Numbered from the stretch's first letter, positions 3,227 through 52,902 are shown. The stretch: DNA of 64,000 nucleotides from an uncultured Acidobacteriota bacterium (GCA_963809485.1 CAWEJX010000021.1:50894-114893); one strand, 5' to 3'. Numbers and translations: made by a program. Notes: generated from the letters alone by a model not told the origin.

Positions 3227-5310
3227 CTAGCCCGAGTTTACCACCCGTAGGCGGCAAAATTCCATTTTGATCAGCATTGAAGCCCCTGCAAGCAACATAT
3301 TATGTATGACCTAACTATAATCCATTTATACCTCCACGACGACCGCCTGGCATTGCCGCCAGCCACGCAGTAATATTGTCGCAAAGCACTGAACTATTTC
3401 CTAAGAATATCTTTCTGTAATGCCTAATTTATCAAGACATCCGCATTTCTTTGATACTATATATTGGGCCTTCAGGCAATCTGCACAACAATATCTTGAC
3501 ATCACGAGTAAAATATTGTATGACCTAACCATGGCAAGCTTGACCAAGAAGTTCATCAAGGGAAGGCCCTACTACTACCTGCGGGAGTGCCGCCGTGTGG
3601 GCGGCAAGCCCAAAATCGTCTGGCAGGAATATATCGGCACGCCCCAACAGCTGACCCTGAGGCTCACCAACCCCAGACCCCAGGAAATCATCGTCCGGGA
3701 ATTTGGCGCTTCCGCCGCAACCTTCGATATGGCCCAAAAACTGGAGGTCGTTTCCATTATTGACCGTCACGTCCCCAAGGAGGGGAACCAGGGGCCTTCG
3801 GTCGGCGAGTATCTGCTGGTTGCTTGCCTCAACCGTTGCATGGCGCCCTGCAGCAAGGCGAAAACCGGCGAATGGTATGACAAAACCGTACTTCCCCGCC
3901 TGCTTGGCATCAAGAGTTCCCAGCTTTCCAGCCAGCGCTTCTGGGACAATATGAATCGGGTCAATCAACCGGAAATCGGCAAGATCGAGGCGGATATCTC
4001 CGCAGTCGCGGTATCCCGATTCGGCCTGGACCTGAAATGCCTGCTTTTTGATGCCACCAACTTTTTCACCTTTATCGACAGCTTCAACGATCGGGCGAAA
4101 CTGCCGCAGCGCGGCCATGGTAAAGAAGGGCGGGACAATTTGCGCATTATCGGCTTGGCCCTTTTGGTCACCTCCGACGGCGACGTCCCTCTGTTTCATT
4201 GCACTTACGCGGGCAACCAGCACGACTCGGTGACATTCTCCAGCGTAGCCGAGGATTTGGCTGACCGCTGCCGGAAGCTGTCCGAGGGTGTCTGTGACAT
4301 TACGCTCGTCTTCGACAAGGGGAATAACTCCAAGGAGAACCTGGATGCCGTCAACGCCGGGCCCTACCACTTCGTCGGATCTCTGGTTCCCAGCCAGCAT
4401 CCGCAACTCCTGCGCATCTCTCGAGACGAGATGCATCGATTGGACAAAAGCCTGCTGCCTTCCGTCTGGAGCTACCGAACGCAAAAAGAGGTCTTTGGGA
4501 TCCGGCGTACCGTCTTGGTCACATACAACCGCGAGCTTTACCGGGCACAGGTCAAGACTCTGAGGCGCGAAATCGCAAAACGCCGGCGCAAACTGCAGCA
4601 ACTGCAGCTGTCTCTCCAACGCCATAGCGGTCCGAACTCCCGAGGGAAGAAACCCACGCTGCAGGGAAGCCGCAACCGCGTTCAAAGTATTCTTGCAGGC
4701 CGCCACATGACCCAACTCTTTTCTGCCAAAGTGATCCTGGGCAAGGATCAGATCCCTCGGCTCCGATGGGCTTTCAGAGATCGAGAATGGGATCGATTGG
4801 ATCGAACCCTTCTGGGCAAAACAATCCTGTTCACGGATCGGGAAGAATGGACCGACGAACAGATCGTGTTGGCCTATCGGAGCCAATCTCACGTGGAAGC
4901 AGCATTCCGCCGCATGAAAGATCCCCGGTTCCTTGCCTTCCGTCCCACGCATCATTGGACCGATCAAAAGCTCCGAGTCCATGCTTTTTATTGCGTGCTG
5001 GCTTTAATGATAACGAGCCTGCTATGCCGCAAGCTCGCACAAGCTGGGATCCGCATGAGCATTGCGCGCATGATGGAACGGCTGAAAGACATCAATGAAG
5101 TGGTGAATCTATATCCAACCCCAAAGGGTGCGGAACCGCGCATGCAAGTCGACCTGTCACAACAGGACGCGGAACAAGCCGCCATTCTGAAAGCCCTCGA
5201 TCTGGCTCGGTACGTCTCAAATTAGGTCATACGTTTCGGGATCACTCGCAGCCGCTTCAATACTGATCAAAATGGAATTTTGCCGCCTACAGGTGGTAAA
5301 CTCGGGCTAG
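3227..5310 (+). mobile_element. IS1634-family insertion sequence, apparently intact
   Basis: The 48-bp terminal inverted repeats 3227..3274 and 5263..5310 match at 47 of 48 positions by eye. They enclose a single long transposase ORF. CTAG sits at both outer tips. Confidence 0.8.
3531..5225 (+). CDS. IS1634 family (IS4-like DDE) transposase
   Basis: ORF 3420..5225; likely start MASLTKKFIKGRPYYYLRECRRVGGKPKIVWQEYIG, an N terminus typical of IS1634 transposases. TTGACA-N17-TATGAC lies upstream. Confidence 0.8.
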   Translation: MASLTKKFIKGRPYYYLRECRRVGGKPKIVWQEYIGTPQQLTLRLTNPRPQEIIVREFGASAATFDMAQKLEVVSIIDRHVPKEGNQGPSVGEYLLVACLNRCMAPCSKAKTGEWYDKTVLPRLLGIKSSQLSSQRFWDNMNRVNQPEIGKIEADISAVAVSRFGLDLKCLLFDATNFFTFIDSFNDRAKLPQRGHGKEGRDNLRIIGLALLVTSDGDVPLFHCTYAGNQHDSVTFSSVAEDLADRCRKLSEGVCDITLVFDKGNNSKENLDAVNAGPYHFVGSLVPSQHPQLLRISRDEMHRLDKSLLPSVWSYRTQKEVFGIRRTVLVTYNRELYRAQVKTLRREIAKRRRKLQQLQLSLQRHSGPNSRGKKPTLQGSRNRVQSILAGRHMTQLFSAKVILGKDQIPRLRWAFRDREWDRLDRTLLGKTILFTDREEWTDEQIVLAYRSQSHVEAAFRRMKDPRFLAFRPTHHWTDQKLRVHAFYCVLALMITSLLCRKLAQAGIRMSIARMMERLKDINEVVNLYPTPKGAEPRMQVDLSQQDAEQAAILKALDLARYVSN

Positions 5311-10660: not shown

Positions 10661-11830
10661 ATGGCAAGAGTCGTCGGGACCTATGAGCAAACCAGCACTG
10701 CGGGTGAAACTGTAAATGCCTTTGTGCCGGCGCCACTTCCTCCAGGCAATCCTCCCCTCGATATGAACGCTGAACTCTCGGGATTATTGCAGTGTGCTGA
10801 AGCGGGTATTTCCAGGTTGAAGGTTGCAGGGTCGATGGTCCCGTCTCTGGATTGGCTTCTCTATTCTTTTGTTCGCAAAGAAGCTGTGGTTTCTTCCCAG
10901 ATAGAGGGTACGCAATCAACCCTGGTGGACTTGCTTATGTACGAAGCCGCCGGGAAGGAAGACGCCATCGACGATGGCGATGTCATACAAGTCCGCAACT
11001 ACGTCGACGCTCTTCATTACGCGCGCAAGCAGATGCGCAGCAAAAATGGACTGCCATTGTCCATACGACTCCTCAATGAGGCTCATCGGCGTTTACTGAA
11101 GAACGTTCCCGGTACCGATAGGGCTCCGGGAGAAATCAGGCGGAGCCAGAACTGGCTCGGCGGGACTCGTCCTGGCAATGCAGTATTCGTACCCCCGCCC
11201 CCCTATTTGTTGGGCGGTTTACTCGGCTCTCTGGGAAAATATATCCACGGTGAAGATTCCCTGCATCCATTGGTTAGAGCAGGGCTGTCGCATGTACAAT
11301 TCGAAACGATACATCCTTATCTGGATGGGAACGGCCGCATCGGCAGGCTCCTGATTACATTGCTCCTGGAGCATTGGAGGATTTTGGATTCCCCCCTGCT
11401 CTATTTGAGTCTTTATTTCAAACGCCACCGTGCCGAGTATTACCGCCGGCTGGATGCCGTTCGGACCGATGGTGATTTTGAAGGCTGGGTGAAGTATTTC
11501 CTGGAAGGAGTGGCCGTCATCGCCGACGAAACCGTACTGACAACACAGAAGCTTTTTACCCGGATCGGTGCAGACCGGACCAAAGTACTTTCGGGTGGCT
11601 CTACCTCTGTGGCCGGCATTCGTCTGTTTGAGCTATTGCCCGCTCATCCGATTATCACCGTGGCCGGAGCTGTAAAGTTGCTGGGGACGACAAAGCCAAC
11701 TGCTACCAAAGCCGTAACAGGGCTCGTTGACGCTGGGGTCCTGGTTGAAACGACCGGCCGCCGTCGGGATCGCGCTTTCAGCTACGAGGATTATCTAAAC
11801 CTTCTGCGCGCCGAAACGGAACCGCTTTAA
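10661..11830 (+). CDS. Fic family protein (AMPylase-type Fic/DOC domain with C-terminal wHTH)
   Basis: Fic motif HPYLDGNGRIGRLL, an N-terminal inhibitory-type motif SSQIEGT, and a strong RBS. Confidence 0.9.
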   Translation: MARVVGTYEQTSTAGETVNAFVPAPLPPGNPPLDMNAELSGLLQCAEAGISRLKVAGSMVPSLDWLLYSFVRKEAVVSSQIEGTQSTLVDLLMYEAAGKEDAIDDGDVIQVRNYVDALHYARKQMRSKNGLPLSIRLLNEAHRRLLKNVPGTDRAPGEIRRSQNWLGGTRPGNAVFVPPPPYLLGGLLGSLGKYIHGEDSLHPLVRAGLSHVQFETIHPYLDGNGRIGRLLITLLLEHWRILDSPLLYLSLYFKRHRAEYYRRLDAVRTDGDFEGWVKYFLEGVAVIADETVLTTQKLFTRIGADRTKVLSGGSTSVAGIRLFELLPAHPIITVAGAVKLLGTTKPTATKAVTGLVDAGVLVETTGRRRDRAFSYEDYLNLLRAETEPL

Positions 11831-15688: not shown

Positions 15689-17020
15689 CTATTCGCTATA
15701 GACAAGAGAAGTAGGTGCGGAGAGCAAAAACTCCTCTAAGGTGACTCCGGTTACTTGCTTTGACCTGAACGGCGATCTGCAAATGACCGTTAGGTGGTCG
15801 CGCGGAAAAATCCTGGAAAACCAGCTGAAGTCCATTGGACTGGCTTTCCCCCTTTTGACTTCAATGAAATCTCTATCAGGAGTTACAAAATCAATCTCGT
15901 GCTCCTTCGAAGCCCAGAAACCTATTGCTTCCGGATTAGACCTCCCTCCAAGGACGCATCGTCGCCATATTTCCTGCGCCACCAGCCATTCCATAAAAAC
16001 TCCTTGTATGTCCGGTAAAAGGTCTTCGAATTCGTGAACATACCTCAGAGAGGACGGGTGAAACGCGATGGCAACTGCCAGGTTGATGAAATTGAACTTG
16101 CAGGGCTTCCGCATAAGTACGGTTCTCTTGTTGGTATCAATCGGCCATGAGGGCATGACCGATAAAAGATCGGAGAGCTGTTCGATGTATCCACTGGCTA
16201 CCGTGTTGTTGGCAAGCCCCCCATCGCGGGCGAGTTTCGCAAATCCGACGGTGTTACCGCCGTTGTTCATGATGACGTGCAACAACCGGATTAAAGACAG
16301 CCTTTTTCTTCCGGATGAAACGACTTCTCCCAAAACCCAGTCGCGCACGATCTGGATAAAATATTCAGGAAGCCGCTCAAATTGACATATGTCATTGCAG
16401 GCAACCGGGGAACCTCCGGTCAGCAGATATGCGATCCAGGATTTCTCTCCATGAATCTCTTGAGCATTCAAATTGAATTCCCTATAGGAGATTGGAAGGA
16501 AAATATATTCATTCTTTGACAATTTTCCTTTCCTGCCGGGAAGCTTCTCCGAGCCGTGGCGAAGATCGGACGCCGTTGAACCGGTCGTGATGATGAGGAC
16601 ATCCCTAAAAAGTCCCCGGTCGATCACCCGCTTTACGGCTTTTTCCCAGGCCGGTACGGCCGTTATCTCATCGATAAATAGTCGCTTGATTCCGACGTCT
16701 CTGGAATAGGAGGCATACAGGTTGGTCAATTCCAGATCCAGTTCATCCGCAGAGGCAATTTCGTCGCCATTTAAATAATAGGAAGAACCTTTCCCGAATT
16801 CCTCTGCCGACTGTCGCAGGTTCATGTCGAGCCACGTGCTCTTGCCGTATTGGCGTGGTCCACGGATGATGATAAGCCCCGGTTCTGTCGGAAGTTCGTT
16901 CAGCCCGAATTCGAAACGAAACTGATGAGCTTTGGATTCCAATTCAATGATCCGAGGCCACATGTCATCGCGATCGATGTTTCCTTGCGCCAGCAGCTGA
17001 TTGATTGTCTTAACGTCCAT
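15689..17020 (-). CDS. AAA-family ATPase with DUF4143-like C-terminal domain
   Basis: 443 aa with Walker A GPRQYGKST and Walker B-like LFIDEIT. The C-terminal HEIDFV...IEVKRGK segment is typical of AAA_14/DUF4143 proteins (from memory). Confidence 0.75.
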   Translation of the reverse strand: MDVKTINQLLAQGNIDRDDMWPRIIELESKAHQFRFEFGLNELPTEPGLIIIRGPRQYGKSTWLDMNLRQSAEEFGKGSSYYLNGDEIASADELDLELTNLYASYSRDVGIKRLFIDEITAVPAWEKAVKRVIDRGLFRDVLIITTGSTASDLRHGSEKLPGRKGKLSKNEYIFLPISYREFNLNAQEIHGEKSWIAYLLTGGSPVACNDICQFERLPEYFIQIVRDWVLGEVVSSGRKRLSLIRLLHVIMNNGGNTVGFAKLARDGGLANNTVASGYIEQLSDLLSVMPSWPIDTNKRTVLMRKPCKFNFINLAVAIAFHPSSLRYVHEFEDLLPDIQGVFMEWLVAQEIWRRCVLGGRSNPEAIGFWASKEHEIDFVTPDRDFIEVKRGKASPMDFSWFSRIFPRDHLTVICRSPFRSKQVTGVTLEEFLLSAPTSLVYSE

Positions 17021-29342: not shown

Positions 29343-29906
29343 TCAAAGGCCTGCAGCTTTTGCCAGAACCATCGAGTGTTCTCTCCAAATACTGGGCGTG
29401 GCGGCCGTTTTGAAACCCATGGCCGAAGCCAGCGAAATTGTTCGTGAAAATTCCTGCCGGGTAACGTGCCCCCTGGGTTCTGAAATGAGCAGGCATCCAT
29501 TCTGTTTCAGTAACCTGTGGATTTCCTGCAGAATCCGCTCCTGATCCGGAACTTCGTGGACGACCGCGAATGCCAGCACAAAGTCGGCGGAGCCTGACAT
29601 ATCCTCCATATTCAGGGAATCCTTTTGCGCGCGCCTCGTTACGATCCTATCGAGCACGCCGGCCTTTTGCGCTCGTTTTATTAAGGAAGCCAGCATCTTC
29701 TCCTGCAGGTCGACGCAGACAACTTTGCCTTTGTTGCCGACCAGGACCGCCATGGGAAGGCTGAAATATCCCATACCGCTGCCGATATCGGCGACGGTCA
29801 TCCCGTAAGCGACATAGGAACGCAATATTTCCCCGGGATCGTGTATCAGCTTTCGTATAGGGTTCGCCAGCAAATATCCGAGCCACCAGGGACAGACTCT
29901 ACTCAT
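29343..29906 (-). CDS. class I SAM-dependent methyltransferase
   Basis: ORF 29343..30176. The plausible start is MSRVCPWWLGY at 29906, since upstream is repeat sequence. SAM motif VADIGSGMGY. Confidence 0.75.
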   Translation of the reverse strand: MSRVCPWWLGYLLANPIRKLIHDPGEILRSYVAYGMTVADIGSGMGYFSLPMAVLVGNKGKVVCVDLQEKMLASLIKRAQKAGVLDRIVTRRAQKDSLNMEDMSGSADFVLAFAVVHEVPDQERILQEIHRLLKQNGCLLISEPRGHVTRQEFSRTISLASAMGFKTAATPSIWREHSMVLAKAAGL

Positions 29907-46040: not shown

Positions 46041-46611
46041 TCAGTAGAGCTTAAAGAACAATGTCCTCCCGCGCCCGGTGGCGCCTCCTGTATCCGGATC
46101 GAATACCATCATGGGTTTACTGTCTTTGCGATCTACCGCAAACGCAACCCATCCTTCGACGGAACTAGCCCGGTTTGATCTTGCCGACCAAAGCAGGCTG
46201 GGGCACTGTTACCGATACCCTCGGGTATTCGGTCAAATCCGACGCCAGGGCGACCCACTGAAGCGGAGCGTCGCCGAGATCAAAGAGGAGGGTGTCGGTG
46301 ACGGCTCTCCCTTTAAAATCGAATTTGATGCGGGCCAGGATGTATTCAAAACCCTCGGCCGGCGCAGCGTTGCCCGCGCTGGCCGCTTTCAGCCGGTTCA
46401 TTGCTTCCGCGCCGCGAACCGCCTCAAGAACGGTGATGGTGATATCGTAAATGTTCGCATAGACGGACCCGAGTTCCACCATGGAACGCACGGGCGCGCC
46501 GATCGCGGCCGGGTTGGTCGATGAATTATCCTGCGCTATTGCGGGATGGAGAGATGCTGCAGCCATCGACAGCAATAGGGCGGTACAAAGCACAGCAGAT
46601 TTGTTTTTCAT
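46041..46611 (-). pseudogene. secreted DUF4352-like protein interrupted by one frameshift
   Basis: ORF 46165..46611 (MKNKSAVLCTALLL...) stops at TAG 46165. The +1 frame continues SSVEGWVAFAVDRKDSKPMMVFDPDTGGATGRGRTLFFKLY to 46041. The shift is at the run aaaccgggcta. Confidence 0.55.
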
Positions 46612-46624
46612 GCGATCTCTACTC

Positions 46625-48406
46625 CTATCTCCATTGATCCACGGAAGCGCTGCCCGCGTAACCGAAATCCCCGCCAGACCAGAAGGTGTTTGTTCCTCCT
46701 CCGGTGACCACAATCTCGATTGAAGTGGTGGGTTCGTTGGTATCCTTCGACGCTATGAATGCGGCATTCCTTGTTACACGGCCGCTCCTGGTGTAGCGGG
46801 ACGCGGGGACAACCGCTCCCTGGCCCTGCTTCAGCCAGCCGGCGTATGGTTCCACTCCCGACTGGGCCTGCTTCAGCTCATTCGGATGCTGGGACCAGTA
46901 CAACCACCCCGGTGTGCCCGTTTTTTCAGCAAGCCATTTGGCGAAGGCTTCCTTGGTGGGATGGCCGTTGGAAGCCACATCCGCCGCGACAATAGGATCG
47001 AGAACAAGCGTGGCCTGAGAGGTGCCGAAGGAGAAGAAATGCTCCAGCCATCCGCGGATGACCTCGTGTTGCGGCAGCGGCGAATACCAGGCGATGTCGC
47101 TCATACTCCATCCGCTGAAGAGGCTGACAGCGCTATCCGATTTCTTGAATCCTTTCTGCACATGCAGCGGATTCCAGCCGGCAGGCAATCCATCTTCCGT
47201 CTCCGGGAAACAGAGGTTGCCGTAATTCAGGGGATTCCCCTGGCTGCCCAGGTAGGTTTCACCGGGTTTCCCCGAGCCCCCGAGGTTTTTGGAGATCAGC
47301 GTCCAGCACCGGCCGATGGAAGAATTGGCGCGGCTCATTGGTCCAAGAGCGCCGATCCCCGTGTTCATATCGATCTCCTTGACCACGGGACCATTCACCA
47401 CGACCATTCTGGCGAAAGAGGAAGTGGAGCTGAACAGCGAAGTGAGCCCTTTGGATGCGATAGCCAGGATGGTTGGAAAATATTCCGGCTTCGCGCCCGC
47501 CATCACCGCATTCACGGCGACCATTTCAACGGTGTAATACCAGGCCTCGTGTGGAGGGGAGGGCCGCATCTGGCCGACCCATTCATCCGGCTTGCGGCTC
47601 GTGGCTTTCAGCATTTCTGCAACCTTCTTCTCGGTTGGCAGGATGACTGGATTCCCGTCCGTAAAGTTCTGTGCATGGAATAATGCCATGAGCTTGTCGG
47701 CGGTATTGGGTTCCAGAAGCCTGGGCCGCGGATCTCTTTTGAGAAATCCCGCTTTGCTGTCTTCGGCCGAAAGCTGCTTTGTCAATCCCTCGTAGATTTC
47801 ATCGAGCATGGGCTTGCCGGTCTCCGGATCATTGCCCGCGATATACTTGCGGCACAGGTCGGCCGGCCGGTCCGTGATCGGGTGAGGCGTGTAGGTAATC
47901 CGCATATTGGGGATTCCCTTTTTATACGAGATCGTGGTTACGAGCTCCTTGAACCTCTGCGTGATCATCGGTACGGAAGGAACGCCCATTCTTTCCAAGG
48001 TCACTGCATGGCCGACGACCGCCGGCGAGCAGCTGCTTCAATGCCCCAGCAAAACGATGGCGGCGGCATTTTTTGCTTTGATTTCCTTCCACAAGTTCGG
48101 GTCGTCATCCATGTAACCCGCGATCTTATCCCGCAGCACCCATGTGGTCTTGGGATATTTGGCTTGCAGCGCAGCAAACAGCTCGTTAACAAAAGGTTTT
48201 GTGTTCGGATACTTGGTATCCACGATGTACACGGTCCTGCCGTCCAGCGTTGCCGGACGCGTCGCCATGGGAATCTTGCGTATTTCAGGCTGAATGCCCC
48301 GCGGATTCATCACGACAATTTTTTCTTCATCCGCCGCCCATCCGAACGATGAAGCGAACGTCGCAATCAGCACAGCTATCAGAATGCCAGCCGCCTTAAT
48401 TTTCAT
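46625..48406 (-). CDS. candidate selenoprotein: UxxC redox domain fused to a large domain of unknown function (in-frame UGA at 48040..48038)
   Basis: ORFs 48038..48406 and 46625..48004 are in the same frame with no stop between them other than the TGA. The junction reads ...AAIVLLGH-U-SSCSPAVVGH.... The downstream ORF has no credible start or RBS. Confidence 0.6.
48004..48032 (-). promoter_or_regulatory. possible SECIS-like hairpin downstream of the UGA
   Basis: mRNA CUGC-UC-GCCG-[GCGGUCGU]-CGGC-CAU-GCAG starts 5 nt after the UGA. The pairing was drawn by hand only. Confidence 0.3.
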
Positions 48407-48713
48407 GAAAACTCCCCTCCCGCACAGAACAGATGGAAACTACAGATTTCATACCGGCACCGGATCAAATTCCGCTCTTAGCAATAAAGTTCCGGTTTCC
48501 CTAACATATCCTTTTTCCCTATACAGACTCAATACTCTTGTTGGATCACGAGCATCATTCACCCCATAGCCTTGTTAACGAACGGCTGCCAATTCGTTCT
48601 GACAAAGCTTCCCTCCCGGGAGATCAAAGATGCCTTCGATTCGAATCTCGAGTAATATTAAGCAGGCGGGCTACAATGCGTTATAATATACATAGGGAGC
48701 TAACCGTAAAACC

Positions 48714-50145
48714 GTGAAATCACGCTCGATTCGCATTCTGCTATCACTTGCAGGTCTAGCGGCGCTGACGTTTGCGGCACACAACATTTTTCAGGTGAAC
48801 GCAACAACGGCGGGTTTCGGATACCTGTTGGTTGTGCTCGTGGTCGCAAGCAGCTGGGGATTTATCGAGGCATCCATTACCTCCATCGCGGCGACCCTCG
48901 CATTTAACTTTTTTTTCTTCCCTCCGGTTGGCACCTTCAACATTGCGGATGCCCACAATTGGGTGGCTTTGTTCAGCTTTCTTGTCACCTCGCTGATTGC
49001 CAGCCGACTGTCGACCAAGGCGAAAATGAAGGCTTTGGATGCGATCGAGCGACAGCAGGATATCGAGAGGCTTTATGCATTCAGCCGTGCCCTTCTTCTG
49101 ATAGATAACTCAGAACCGTTTGGAGCCCAACTCATCCGAAAACTGGCGGATATTTTCCAGCTGAACGCAGCGGCCCTTTACGATCGTCGATCCGGAAATT
49201 TCTTCCGTGCAGGATCATCGGAGTCTTGAAGTCCATGGATGCCCAGCTGCGTGAAACGGCATTGGACAACATCCCCGATTCAAACATCCAGCCGAACTAC
49301 TTGCTGACGCCTGTAAGGTTGGGCACCGATCCGATCGCTAGTCTCGCCGTTCAGGGTCCAAGGATGTCCGATTCCGTTCTGCAAGGCATCGCGAATCTTG
49401 TAGCCATAGGCCTGGAACGGGCAAGATCCCAGGATCTTGCCCAGCAGATAGAGGCAGCGCGACAAAGCGAACAATTGCGAACCACGCTCATCGACGCCAT
49501 GGCTCACGAGTTCAAGACTCCTCTCACATCCATAAAGGCCGCGACTACAGGGCTCCTCGCAAATCCGCGGACAGCTGACGGAAAGCCAGGTAGAGCTGCT
49601 CGATATTGCCGACGAGGACGCGGACCATTTGAAGGAACTCATCGATGACACGGTAGACATGGCACGCCTGGACACGGCTCATATAGAAATCAATCCCGAA
49701 ATTTCGGATATACTGGAGATTGTCCATGAGGTGGTTCATTCGCTGAGAACCGAACTCGAAGGGCGTCTTCTGGAAATATCTCCTGATGAAGGGAATCCGG
49801 AAAAGCGCTTTTGATCGGCGGCTGTTGAGGCTGGCAATAAAACAGTTGATTGACAATGCCGCGAAATATTCCCCGGCAGGCACGCCCCTGGAAATTCGAG
49901 TGCAACAGGATGAGAACACAATTAGTGTGGATGTCACCGATCATGGGAAAGGAATACCTGAGCGGGAACAGAAACGCATTTTTGAGCGGTTTTTCAGAAG
50001 TCCCTCCATACGGCAGCAGATACCGGGCTCCGGCCTCGGACTGAGTATTGCCCACAGCATATTGCAGGCCCATCATGGAGATTTGACCGTAACGAGCCAA
50101 CCCGGCAGGACAACATTTCATTTGACCCTGCCGGCAGAAATATAA
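48714..50145 (+). pseudogene. sensor histidine kinase (KdpD C-terminal type: DUF4118 TM domain, HisKA, HATPase_c) broken by at least 3 frameshifts
   Basis: The pieces 48714..49229, 49226..49648, 49629..49814 and 49786..50145 are in frames 0/2/0/1 and read as one protein. Features: H-box AMAHEFKTPLTSI, N-box IDNAAKYSP, G-box GSGLGLSIA. Confidence 0.75.
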
Positions 50146-51134: not shown

Positions 51135-52902
51135 ATGACTGGCCAGGGTGTGCTCCAGATAATGGTTTATTGTGTTGTTCTTCTTGCCCTGACGAAGCCT
51201 CTCGGCGCTTACATGGCACGGGTATACGGAGGAGAGAGAACATTCCTGCATCCAGTCCTCCATCGCCTGGAACGATTGGTATACGCCCTGGCTGGAGTTA
51301 AGGATAAGACGGAGCAGCGCTGGACCCAGTATGCAGCCTCACTCCTGGCATTCAGCATGGTTTGCTTCGTCCTGACTTATTTGATCCAGCGTTTTCAGGG
51401 ACTATTGCCACTGAACCCCGCGGGGTTCGGATCGAGGCAGGCTACGCCGGACCTGGCTTTCAACACAGCCGTCAGCTTCATGACGAACACAAACTGGCAA
51501 TCCTATCGGGGGCGAGACGACCTTGAGTTATTTTGTCCAGATGGCTGCATTGACGGTACAGAATTTTGCATCGGCCGCTGCTGGAATGTGCGTCGCAATA
51601 GCCCTGATCAGGGGTTTTGTTCGGCGGCAGCAGAACACCATCGGGAACTTCTGGGTCGACCTTGTGCGAGGAATTGTTTATATCCTTTTGCCACTCGCTT
51701 TGATCGGAGCTCTTTTTCTCTGCTCCCAGGGTGTGGTTCAAAACTTCAATGCGTTCACAACCGCTAGGACACTTGAAGGCAGCATCCAAACAATTGCGCA
51801 GGGGCCCGCGGCTTCCCAGGTTTCCATCAAGCAGTTGGGTACAAATGGGGGCGGCTTTTTCAACGCCAACTCCGCTCATCCTTATGAGAACCCGACTCCC
51901 CTCGCCAATTTCGTGGAAACTCTATTCATTCTATTGATACCCGCCGGGCTGGTTTACACCTTCGGAATCATGGTAGGAGACACCCGCCAGGGATGGGCTC
52001 TTTATGCTGCAATGAGTCTTTTGTTTCTTGCCGGCGTTTTCATCTGTTACCCGGCCGAACAATCGGGCAATGCCAATCTACCCGCATTGGGGGTTCAAAA
52101 CGATCCCGCCTACTTGCAGCCCGGCGGCAATATGGAGGGCAAGGAGGTGCGCTTCGGCATCGCCCCCTCGGCGCTTTGGGCGGTAGCAACCACGGCGGCA
52201 AGCAATGGCAGCATCAACAGCATGCTGGACAGTTTTACGCCACTCGGCGGATTGATCCCGCTGTTCAACATTCAAACGGGCGAAGTCATCTTTGGCGGCG
52301 CCGGAGCAGGTCTATATGGAATGCTCCTGTTCGCCATTCTTGCCGTCTTCATTGCGGGCCTCATGGTCGGACGCACGCCGGAATATCTTGGCAAAAAGAT
52401 CGAAGGCAAGGAAGTCAAAATGGCAATGCTCGCTCTGATTGCTTGCGCCGTCGGAATTCTTGTATTTACCGCGATCAGCGCACAAATCGACTTTGCCAAA
52501 AACAGTTACTGGAACAGCCCGGGAGCGGCCGCGGAGAACTTGTCGAATAGCGGCCCGCACGGACTTTCGGAAATGCTCTATGCCTACTCGAGCGCTACCG
52601 GCAATAATGGCAGCGCTTTCGCCGGACTGAATTCAAATACTCCCTGGTACAACCTGACTACGGGTCTGGCAATGCTCATCGGGCGCTTTCTCGTAATTAT
52701 CCCGATGCTGGCAATAGCCGGAAACCTGGCAATGAAAAAAGCCGTGCCCGCAACAAGCGGGACAATTCCAACCCATGGCCCACTCTTCGTCGGTCTGCTG
52801 GTGGGCACCGTGGTCATTGTAGGAGCGTTGACTTTCTTCCCGGCTCTCTCTCTGACACCCATTGTTGAGCATTTGCTGATGAATAGCGGTCATCTTTTCT
52901 AA
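51135..52902 (+). pseudogene. kdpA: K+-transporting ATPase subunit A, one frameshift
   Basis: 51135..51767 and 51523..52902 together read as KdpA (...[16 protein letters not shown] / [15 protein letters not shown]...). The shift is at the run tatcgggggcgag near 51505..51520. Confidence 0.85.

Follow-up and report, generated by a model that had tools for sequence, protein, structure and literature searches.

The window analysed here is a stretch of 64,000 nucleotides (nt) from an uncultured Acidobacteriota bacterium (GCA_963809485.1, CAWEJX010000021.1:50894-114893; positions are counted from its first letter). Its minus strand carries, at 46625..48406, what is with high probability (roughly 0.88) one complete gene for a selenocysteine (Sec)-containing long-form protein of the UGSC family, 593 residues in length, which would be read across an in-frame UGA. 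The first part of this gene is a minus-strand open reading frame (ORF) of 122 amino acids (aa) that begins with an ATG, occupies 48406..48038 and ends with KNAAAIVLLGH at TGA 48040..48038. Past this TGA the frame remains open to a TAG at 46627..46625, giving 593 residues and a stop (594 codons including both stops), and read-through produces the junction IVLLGH-U-SSC-SPAVVGHAVTLERMGVPSVPMITQRF, in which the putative Sec codon (48038..48040) is residue 123 and opens a candidate redox motif, U-S-S-C (residues 123-126, 48029..48040). A Shine-Dalgarno-like run, GGAGGGGAG, can be read 5 nt upstream of ATG 48406 (48412..48420); the downstream ORF is listed from GTG 48004, with neither a purine run nor a ribosome-binding site ahead of it. 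The sequence-only reading, an earlier one that had joined the two ORFs into about 590 codons, was thus right on coordinates and frame, as well as on the absence of a Shine-Dalgarno-like run before the GTG. An exact-sequence database look-up of the 122-aa ORF returned no record. A six-frame scan of the window found 31 TGAs flanked on both sides by 80 or more open codons; TGA 48040..48038, with 134 and 471 open codons, has by far the longest downstream frame among them, and is the only one for which protein homology or a domain match across the TGA was demonstrated.

The fused sequence matches the Pfam UGSC model PF24696 with 101.6 bits (cut-off 25) over residues 32-187 (47846..48313), spanning the UGA at residue 123 and reaching about 65 residues beyond it; the same domain is matched by the NCBIfam model NF041046, “UGSC family (seleno)protein”. 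As the Pfam match extends through the stop, the 122-aa piece and the downstream piece would each hold only half of a UGSC domain. PF24696 was also matched by all 13 of the N-terminal domains tested, and the earlier assignment of the N-terminal part to this family is supported by the above-cut-off match. In the motif columns of the alignment, the window has GH-U-SSC and its relatives have U-S-T-C, U-G-G-C, U-D-G-C, U-P-G-C or C-S-T-C. The protein resembles the UGSC family in its Pfam-level domain match, in a U/C-x-x-C that follows a GH or GL strand end and in the alternation of Sec and cysteine (Cys) at one codon; it differs in having U-S-S-C in place of U-G-S-C, a sub-cut-off NF041046 score and a signal peptide. 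Moreover, neither PF24696 nor NF041046 covers the C-terminal domain of about 370 aa. The family corresponds to the “UGSC-containing protein” of Zhang and Gladyshev, whose function is unknown in the literature (PMC1976440, PMC13188914), and reviews as late as 2026 still give it no known function. In a 2008 study of the Global Ocean Sampling data (PMC2398784), UGSC proteins are among the most abundant marine selenoproteins, with 255 Sec and 21 Cys forms.

Searching a protein database with the fused sequence gave 4,480 homologues, the best 120 of which, inspected for length, are all fragments of 393-460 aa starting just 3' of the stop. Automatic gene callers have therefore split all the close relatives at this one position. 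An exhaustive search of 50%-identity cluster representatives (3,591 clusters) recovered full-length relatives of 535-667 aa; these align from the N-terminal domain through the C-terminal DxWR, and five of the 15 examined (P0132, P0136, P0141, P0146 and P0212) have a CxxC (CSTC, CPGC or CGSC) at the position of UxxC. At least 590 relatives came out of a scan in which each GTDB species was represented by one genome, and the best 80 loci were retained. Codons were compared in a set of 82 related loci (L001-L082), 81 of them usable (the match in L063 starts only at query residue 117), and the tblastn alignments span the junction in 81 of the 82. These loci belong to at least ten phyla and include Acidobacteriota, Thermodesulfobacteriota, Chloroflexota (Dehalococcoidales among them), Alpha-, Beta- and Gammaproteobacteria, Actinomycetota, Verrucomicrobiota, Latescibacterota, Methylomirabilota and Bacillota.

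Opposite the UGA, 77 gene copies have TGA, 13 have TGC or TGT and one (L072) has a different codon. Of the 90 copies with TGA or a Cys codon, 87 also retain the Cys at +3; it is missing from two distant paralogues of about 29% identity (in L012 and L060) and from L072. The Cys forms are single continuous ORFs of about 550 aa that align across the junction with their Cys at exactly the UGA codon, which supports the earlier proposal in placing the UGA at a U-x-x-C motif and in expecting Cys homologues that align across it. Had homologues consistently been two genes, that proposal would have suffered; such a split is found only in automatic gene calls on TGA forms, the Cys forms being continuous. 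This TGA recurs in L083 (GCA_964474425.1), a syntenic contig of near-identical sequence, and in the two contigs of about 7.4 Mb behind L001 and L002. The reading of UGA 48040..48038 as a Sec codon is well supported by these sequence comparisons. As a separate observation, tandem paralogues are common: long-form UGSC genes are repeated within L018 (three copies), L005, L015, L017, L024, L040, L056 and L062, in most of these head to tail; Sec and Cys forms can be mixed in one array, as in L018 (TGC, TGC, TGA).

A hairpin resembling a selenocysteine insertion sequence (SECIS) follows the UGA on the minus strand (48003..48033). Its lower stem, GCUGC/GCAGU, has five pairs (48033..48029 with 48007..48003) and its upper stem, GCCGGC/GUCGGC, six (48026..48021 with 48016..48011); the apical loop is the 4-nt GGUC (48020..48017), which begins 20 nt 3' of the U of the UGA. 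For so G+C-rich a composition the folding energy of the hairpin is unremarkable (z = 0.24), a point against the SECIS interpretation, and since energy cannot separate the hairpin from shuffled sequence, comparative evidence was relied on; the case that the hairpin is real thus rests on relatives and not on energy. Downstream of the 77 UGAs, a hairpin recurs with its stem at nt 15-20 and 25-30 and its loop at nt 21-24. Among the 74 aligned Sec forms, the loop is GGUC in 48 and GACC in 16, the latter marking one acidobacterial clade, and the stems vary in a compensatory manner from clade to clade (CCGGC/GUCGG, CCCCAC/GUGGGG, CCCGAC/GUCGGG, CCGGAG/CUCCGG and CGCGGC/GCCGCG). In these 74 sequences, compensatory double changes were found at four of the six stem pairs, slid registers give pairing of only 23-66%, and RNAalifold independently gives the same apical pairs. 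Paired cells amount to 82.4% in the same set against 70.8% after column shuffling (none of 500 shuffles was as high), and the mean local folding energy is -9.7 kcal/mol in Sec forms against -4.2 kcal/mol in Cys forms (p = 1.6e-5, Mann-Whitney, relatedness uncorrected), although the shuffle and Mann-Whitney figures overstate independence, because the sequences are inter-related and all protein-coding, and this also weighs against the interpretation. The 13 Cys forms are 45% paired, compared with 82% in the Sec forms, and most of them lack the hairpin.

The hairpin also coincides with suppressed variation, which extends to synonymous sites. In a comparison of the window with three relatives, variable columns number 28 of 70 in the upstream flank and 24 of 63 in the downstream one, and 3 of 38 in the stretch that runs from the UGA to the end of the hairpin; for third codon positions, the variable fractions are 16/24 upstream, 16/21 downstream and 3/12 in the hairpin stretch. 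Likewise, the 11 codons between the stop and GTG 48004 are strongly conserved, both as protein and as RNA. The SECIS of Escherichia coli fdhF has the same GGUC loop and spacing, and the resemblance extends to a hairpin lying directly 3' of the UGA within the coding sequence, with G first in the apical loop and the loop G-U about 21-23 nt from the UGA. The elements described here differ from it in that the lower stem and any bulge vary between clades and in the GACC loop of one acidobacterial clade. The hairpin that had been noticed just after the UGA as a candidate bacterial SECIS exists and has comparative backing; its loop is of 4 nt and not, as proposed, of 8 nt. The conserved GGUC hairpin would offer a simple marker for finding long UGSC forms.

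Several further results weigh against a Sec-containing UGSC protein. No Rfam model matches the hairpin when the junction is scanned at E up to 10, and a scan of the whole window at gathering thresholds gave nothing relevant. The NF041046 score of 71.9 bits (E = 5.5e-20) lies under the curated equivalog cut-off of 125; P0271, a cultured Cys long form that bears the NCBI name of a UGSC family protein, likewise falls under this cut-off. Many relatives (such as P0121, P0124, P0130 and P0138) lack both redox residues and keep the C-terminal domain. Finally, neither a tRNA-Sec nor selA, selB or selD was found within the 64-kb window, where ARAGORN reported no tRNA-Sec, and where SelA, SelB and SelD motif searches and Pfam scans of 20 further ORFs found none of these proteins.

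The automatic annotation itself amounts to an alternative, in which the UGA is a real stop after a secreted protein of 122 aa and GTG 48004 starts a separate protein of about 459 aa. It agrees with gene callers that split every close relative, with the 393-460-aa fragments among the best 120 matches and with the gene lists of L001 and L083, which show genes of 122 aa and of 426/453 aa. Such a pair of genes is nevertheless very unlikely: the Pfam match crosses the stop, and the domain would be halved; the GTG has no ribosome-binding site; the Cys forms are continuous ORFs; and the 11 codons from stop to GTG are conserved at both the protein and the RNA level. Still less probable is a pseudogene or an assembly error, by which a TGC or TGT would have been corrupted to TGA. 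Broken genes do occur in the window, a KdpD-like kinase, KdpA and the small downstream gene being frameshifted there and intact in L083. These defects are frameshifts, whereas the TGA is an in-frame substitution pattern accompanied by a conserved hairpin, and it recurs in L083, in the contigs behind L001 and L002 and in 77 gene copies across phyla. Since L083 has the intact genes but keeps the TGA, the frameshifts are specific to this assembly and the TGA is not; they represent either assembly indel errors or strain-specific decay.

The failure to find Sec machinery in the window would also suit a UGA that is translated without Sec, by general read-through or by reassignment to tryptophan or glycine. 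This is about as improbable as the pair of genes, because homologues have Cys and not tryptophan or glycine at the codon, residue 123 is the first position of a CxxC-type motif, and a hairpin specific to the TGA forms stands at SECIS spacing. All three alternatives are thus contradicted by the comparative data, and a single gene with a Sec codon at residue 123 is retained as the preferred reading.

Beyond the UGSC domain, residues 225-593 (46628..47734, minus strand) form a separate C-terminal domain, delimited by alignment. It measures about 370-380 aa and not the 460 or so first estimated, because the UGSC domain extends some 65 residues past the UGA. Its conserved motifs are TDGxPxxxPTE, VExVAxNAVMAG, VNGP, ANxxIGR, ENEE..P.W, VVGG and a C-terminal D-x-W-R; the domain contains no conserved cysteine, and the invariant residues belong to polar or glycine/proline motifs. 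This region has no match in Pfam-A or NCBIfam, and PDB sequences yielded none either to a single-sequence search with the fragment or to a whole-protein profile; a profile of the N-terminal domain gave only an insignificant match to an FtsZ glycine loop. AlphaFold models were made for the full-length Cys homologue P0132 and for the C-terminal domain of the window protein. The former (predicted local distance difference test score, pLDDT, 93.9; predicted template modelling score, pTM, 0.93) has an alpha/beta N-terminal domain and a compact C-terminal domain, with a disordered linker at residues 200-209, and places the equivalent of the U-S-S-C motif in a strand-helix turn (strand 100-106, CSTC, helix 111-125); the latter reaches pLDDT 93.5 and pTM 0.92.

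In Foldseek searches against the PDB, neither the two-domain model nor the C-domain model gives a hit at E <= 0.001, the best hit of the C-domain having E = 0.8. Matches to a Toblerone-fold hydrolase and to CyuA were rejected (E of 0.8 or higher, template modelling score <= 0.2). The N-terminal domain has weak matches to Rossmann-like, SIS and flavodoxin-like alpha/beta domains. A thioredoxin-fold oxidoreductase was also considered and rejected: no entry of thioredoxin fold is among the 50 Foldseek matches listed, and no thioredoxin-family Pfam match was obtained. Because the matches of the N-terminal domain are not of thioredoxin fold, the label “thiol-disulfide oxidoreductase” carried by P0009 and one UniRef entry lacks fold backing. 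In addition, four proteins of about 710 aa (P0207, P0210, P0231 and P0260) consist of two C-domains in tandem; they lack a UGSC domain and are matched by neither Pfam nor NCBIfam. The C-domain, occurring as such pairs outside the UGSC context, is therefore an independent evolutionary unit.

The combination of the two domains had been taken for an unusual fusion, and this view has to be abandoned: it is the standard architecture, with at least 590 GTDB-species matches and 3,591 clusters formed at 50% identity. When the Cys form of Rhodobacterales HKCCE4037 served as query, 120 full-length proteins of 540-572 aa were obtained, and the NCBI/UniRef name “UGSC family (seleno)protein” is already attached to those of Phaeobacter italicus, Neorhizobium galegae, Microbacterium album, Ramlibacter, Roseomonas and Agromyces; the proteins of Phaeobacter, Neorhizobium, Microbacterium and Ramlibacter are Cys forms of about 550 aa from cultured bacteria. 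A fusion of UGSC with a domain called “Unknown_1”, which also exists alone in some organisms, appears as early as 2008 in Fig. S1A of PMC2398784; it resembles the present protein in joining UGSC to a conserved domain of unknown function, each of the two partner domains being found without UGSC too, and the two might be the same domain. The long UGSC architecture is a widespread and common form, and the gene in the window, split by a routine annotation error, does not code for a new type of protein. It is a clear example of a systematic annotation error, since the best 120 database proteins in its branch are all truncated fragments, and long UGSC forms should be annotated as single selenoprotein genes. 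The family is abundant among bacteria of soils, sediments and aquatic habitats. Knowledge of Sec decoding itself is left unchanged by this gene; the leads it offers are a confidently modelled C-domain with no solved relative or Pfam model, a genetic linkage of cytoplasmic members with a thioredoxin-reductase-like gene and one large branch that is predicted to be exported.

Regarding export, the first residues of the window protein make up a predicted signal peptide of the Sec type (general secretory pathway), MKIKAAGILIAVLIATFASSFGWA (48335..48406, minus strand), with a probable cleavage site after GWA, as judged from its sequence features and from the leaders of relatives. Leaders are likewise present in the relatives L003, L005 and L006, and the N-termini of the clade of the window are of the Sec type, for example MKIK...FGWA with putative cleavage before AD. 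Twin-arginine leaders (MK[IV]NRRKLLSLLG.SPALLAG) were found in about 14 acidobacterial loci, comprising 18 genes of Acidiferrales/Terriglobia (L007, L008, L015, L017, L018, L021, L024, L026-L028, L030, L039, L044 and L079), and this branch is predicted from its leaders to consist of selenoproteins exported by the twin-arginine translocation (Tat) pathway. It is in the same branch that the SECIS loop is GACC in place of GGUC. Proteobacterial, actinobacterial and chloroflexal forms start at a conserved ITVLNPxG and therefore appear cytoplasmic. A leader on a selenoprotein is uncommon, with a precedent in the Tat-exported formate dehydrogenase-N. The leader, first regarded as unusual for a selenoprotein, is no oddity of this one gene: leaders of the Sec or the twin-arginine type are found throughout the Acidobacteriota/Desulfobacterota branch.

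The genomic context of the UGSC gene varies with the presence of a leader. In 27 of the 81 loci a gene resembling thioredoxin reductase (Pyr_redox_2, CASC motif) is found no further than 4 kb away, for example at 2965-3903 in L041, 2959-3900 in L048, 2975-3919 in L073, 5648-6580 in L023 and 5669-6592 in L035. It is on the same strand as the UGSC gene in 25 of the 27 (the exceptions being L056 and L057), and occurs only beside leaderless forms, in Proteobacteria, Chloroflexota, Actinomycetota and one Thermodesulfobacteriota genome; the window has no such neighbour. Directly downstream of the UGSC gene in the window lies a gene for a small secreted protein (46044..46611, minus strand; 189 aa in relatives), which is frameshifted by an apparent 2-nt deletion near 46166. 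This neighbour recurs in nine other loci, eight of which hold leader-bearing forms (the main copy in L012 is leaderless).

A mechanism can be proposed, in which UGA 48040..48038 would be read as Sec owing to the SECIS hairpin just downstream, which would recruit SelB with its Sec-tRNA. The product would comprise, in order, the Sec-type signal peptide, the alpha/beta UGSC domain bearing U123-S-S-C126 and, joined to it by a short flexible linker, the C-domain of about 370 residues. Most probably, U123 and C126 would then form a selenenylsulfide/selenol-thiol redox couple acting on a substrate or partner held by the C-domain, and in the cytoplasmic relatives the adjacent thioredoxin-reductase-like flavoprotein would recharge this couple. 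In a broader proposal, long UGSC proteins would be widespread Sec- or Cys-dependent enzymes that couple a redox module to a substrate-binding domain of undescribed fold, with periplasmic members in Acidobacteriota/Desulfobacterota exported via Sec or Tat; we regard this broader proposal as tentative and rather doubtful. Two points tell against the redox reading: no reductant is evident for the exported form, and the retention of the C-domain in proteins that lack the redox pair, together with the tandem C-domains, implies that C-domain activity may not need Sec or Cys. The Sec/Cys module may therefore be accessory and not catalytic.

If the broader proposal were true, the exported long UGSC forms would resemble a periplasmic counterpart of selenoprotein B of glycine/proline reductase. 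The grd operons include a thioredoxin reductase, and many cytoplasmic UGSC long forms similarly stand beside a TrxB-like gene. GrdB and PrdB also share a UxxC selenoprotein motif, as listed in Table 2 of PMC2398784, and there is a faint, non-significant similarity between residues 106-179 and positions 329-397 of the GrdB model (E = 0.14). Unlike GrdB and PrdB, the window protein is apparently exported, and no partner resembling GrdA, GrdE or PrdA was found in the window. Membership of the GrdB/PrdB family itself was rejected, the protein scoring 11 bits with TIGR01917 (cut-off 602) and the Pfam scans giving no GRDB (PF07355).

A kdp two-component and transporter cluster, oppositely oriented, is found upstream of the UGSC gene; in it the KdpD-like sensor kinase (48714..50145, plus strand) is frameshifted into three ORFs and KdpA (51135..52902, plus strand) into two. 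In L083 the KdpD-like gene, KdpA and the small secreted gene are intact and code for 488, 588 and 189 aa, respectively. The window further contains a DDE transposase (3420..5225, plus strand), a Fic/DOC protein (10661..11830, plus strand) and an AAA_14/DUF4143 ATPase (15689..17020, minus strand), which suggests that its first third is rich in mobile elements or defence genes, separate from the UGSC gene. Finally, a second same-frame TGA junction is present on the minus strand at 29343..29345, between a 277-aa ORF for an S-adenosylmethionine (SAM) methyltransferase and a 483-aa ORF of the URO-D family; recoding was dismissed there, as each side has a complete domain of its own, and the two were judged to be adjacent genes.

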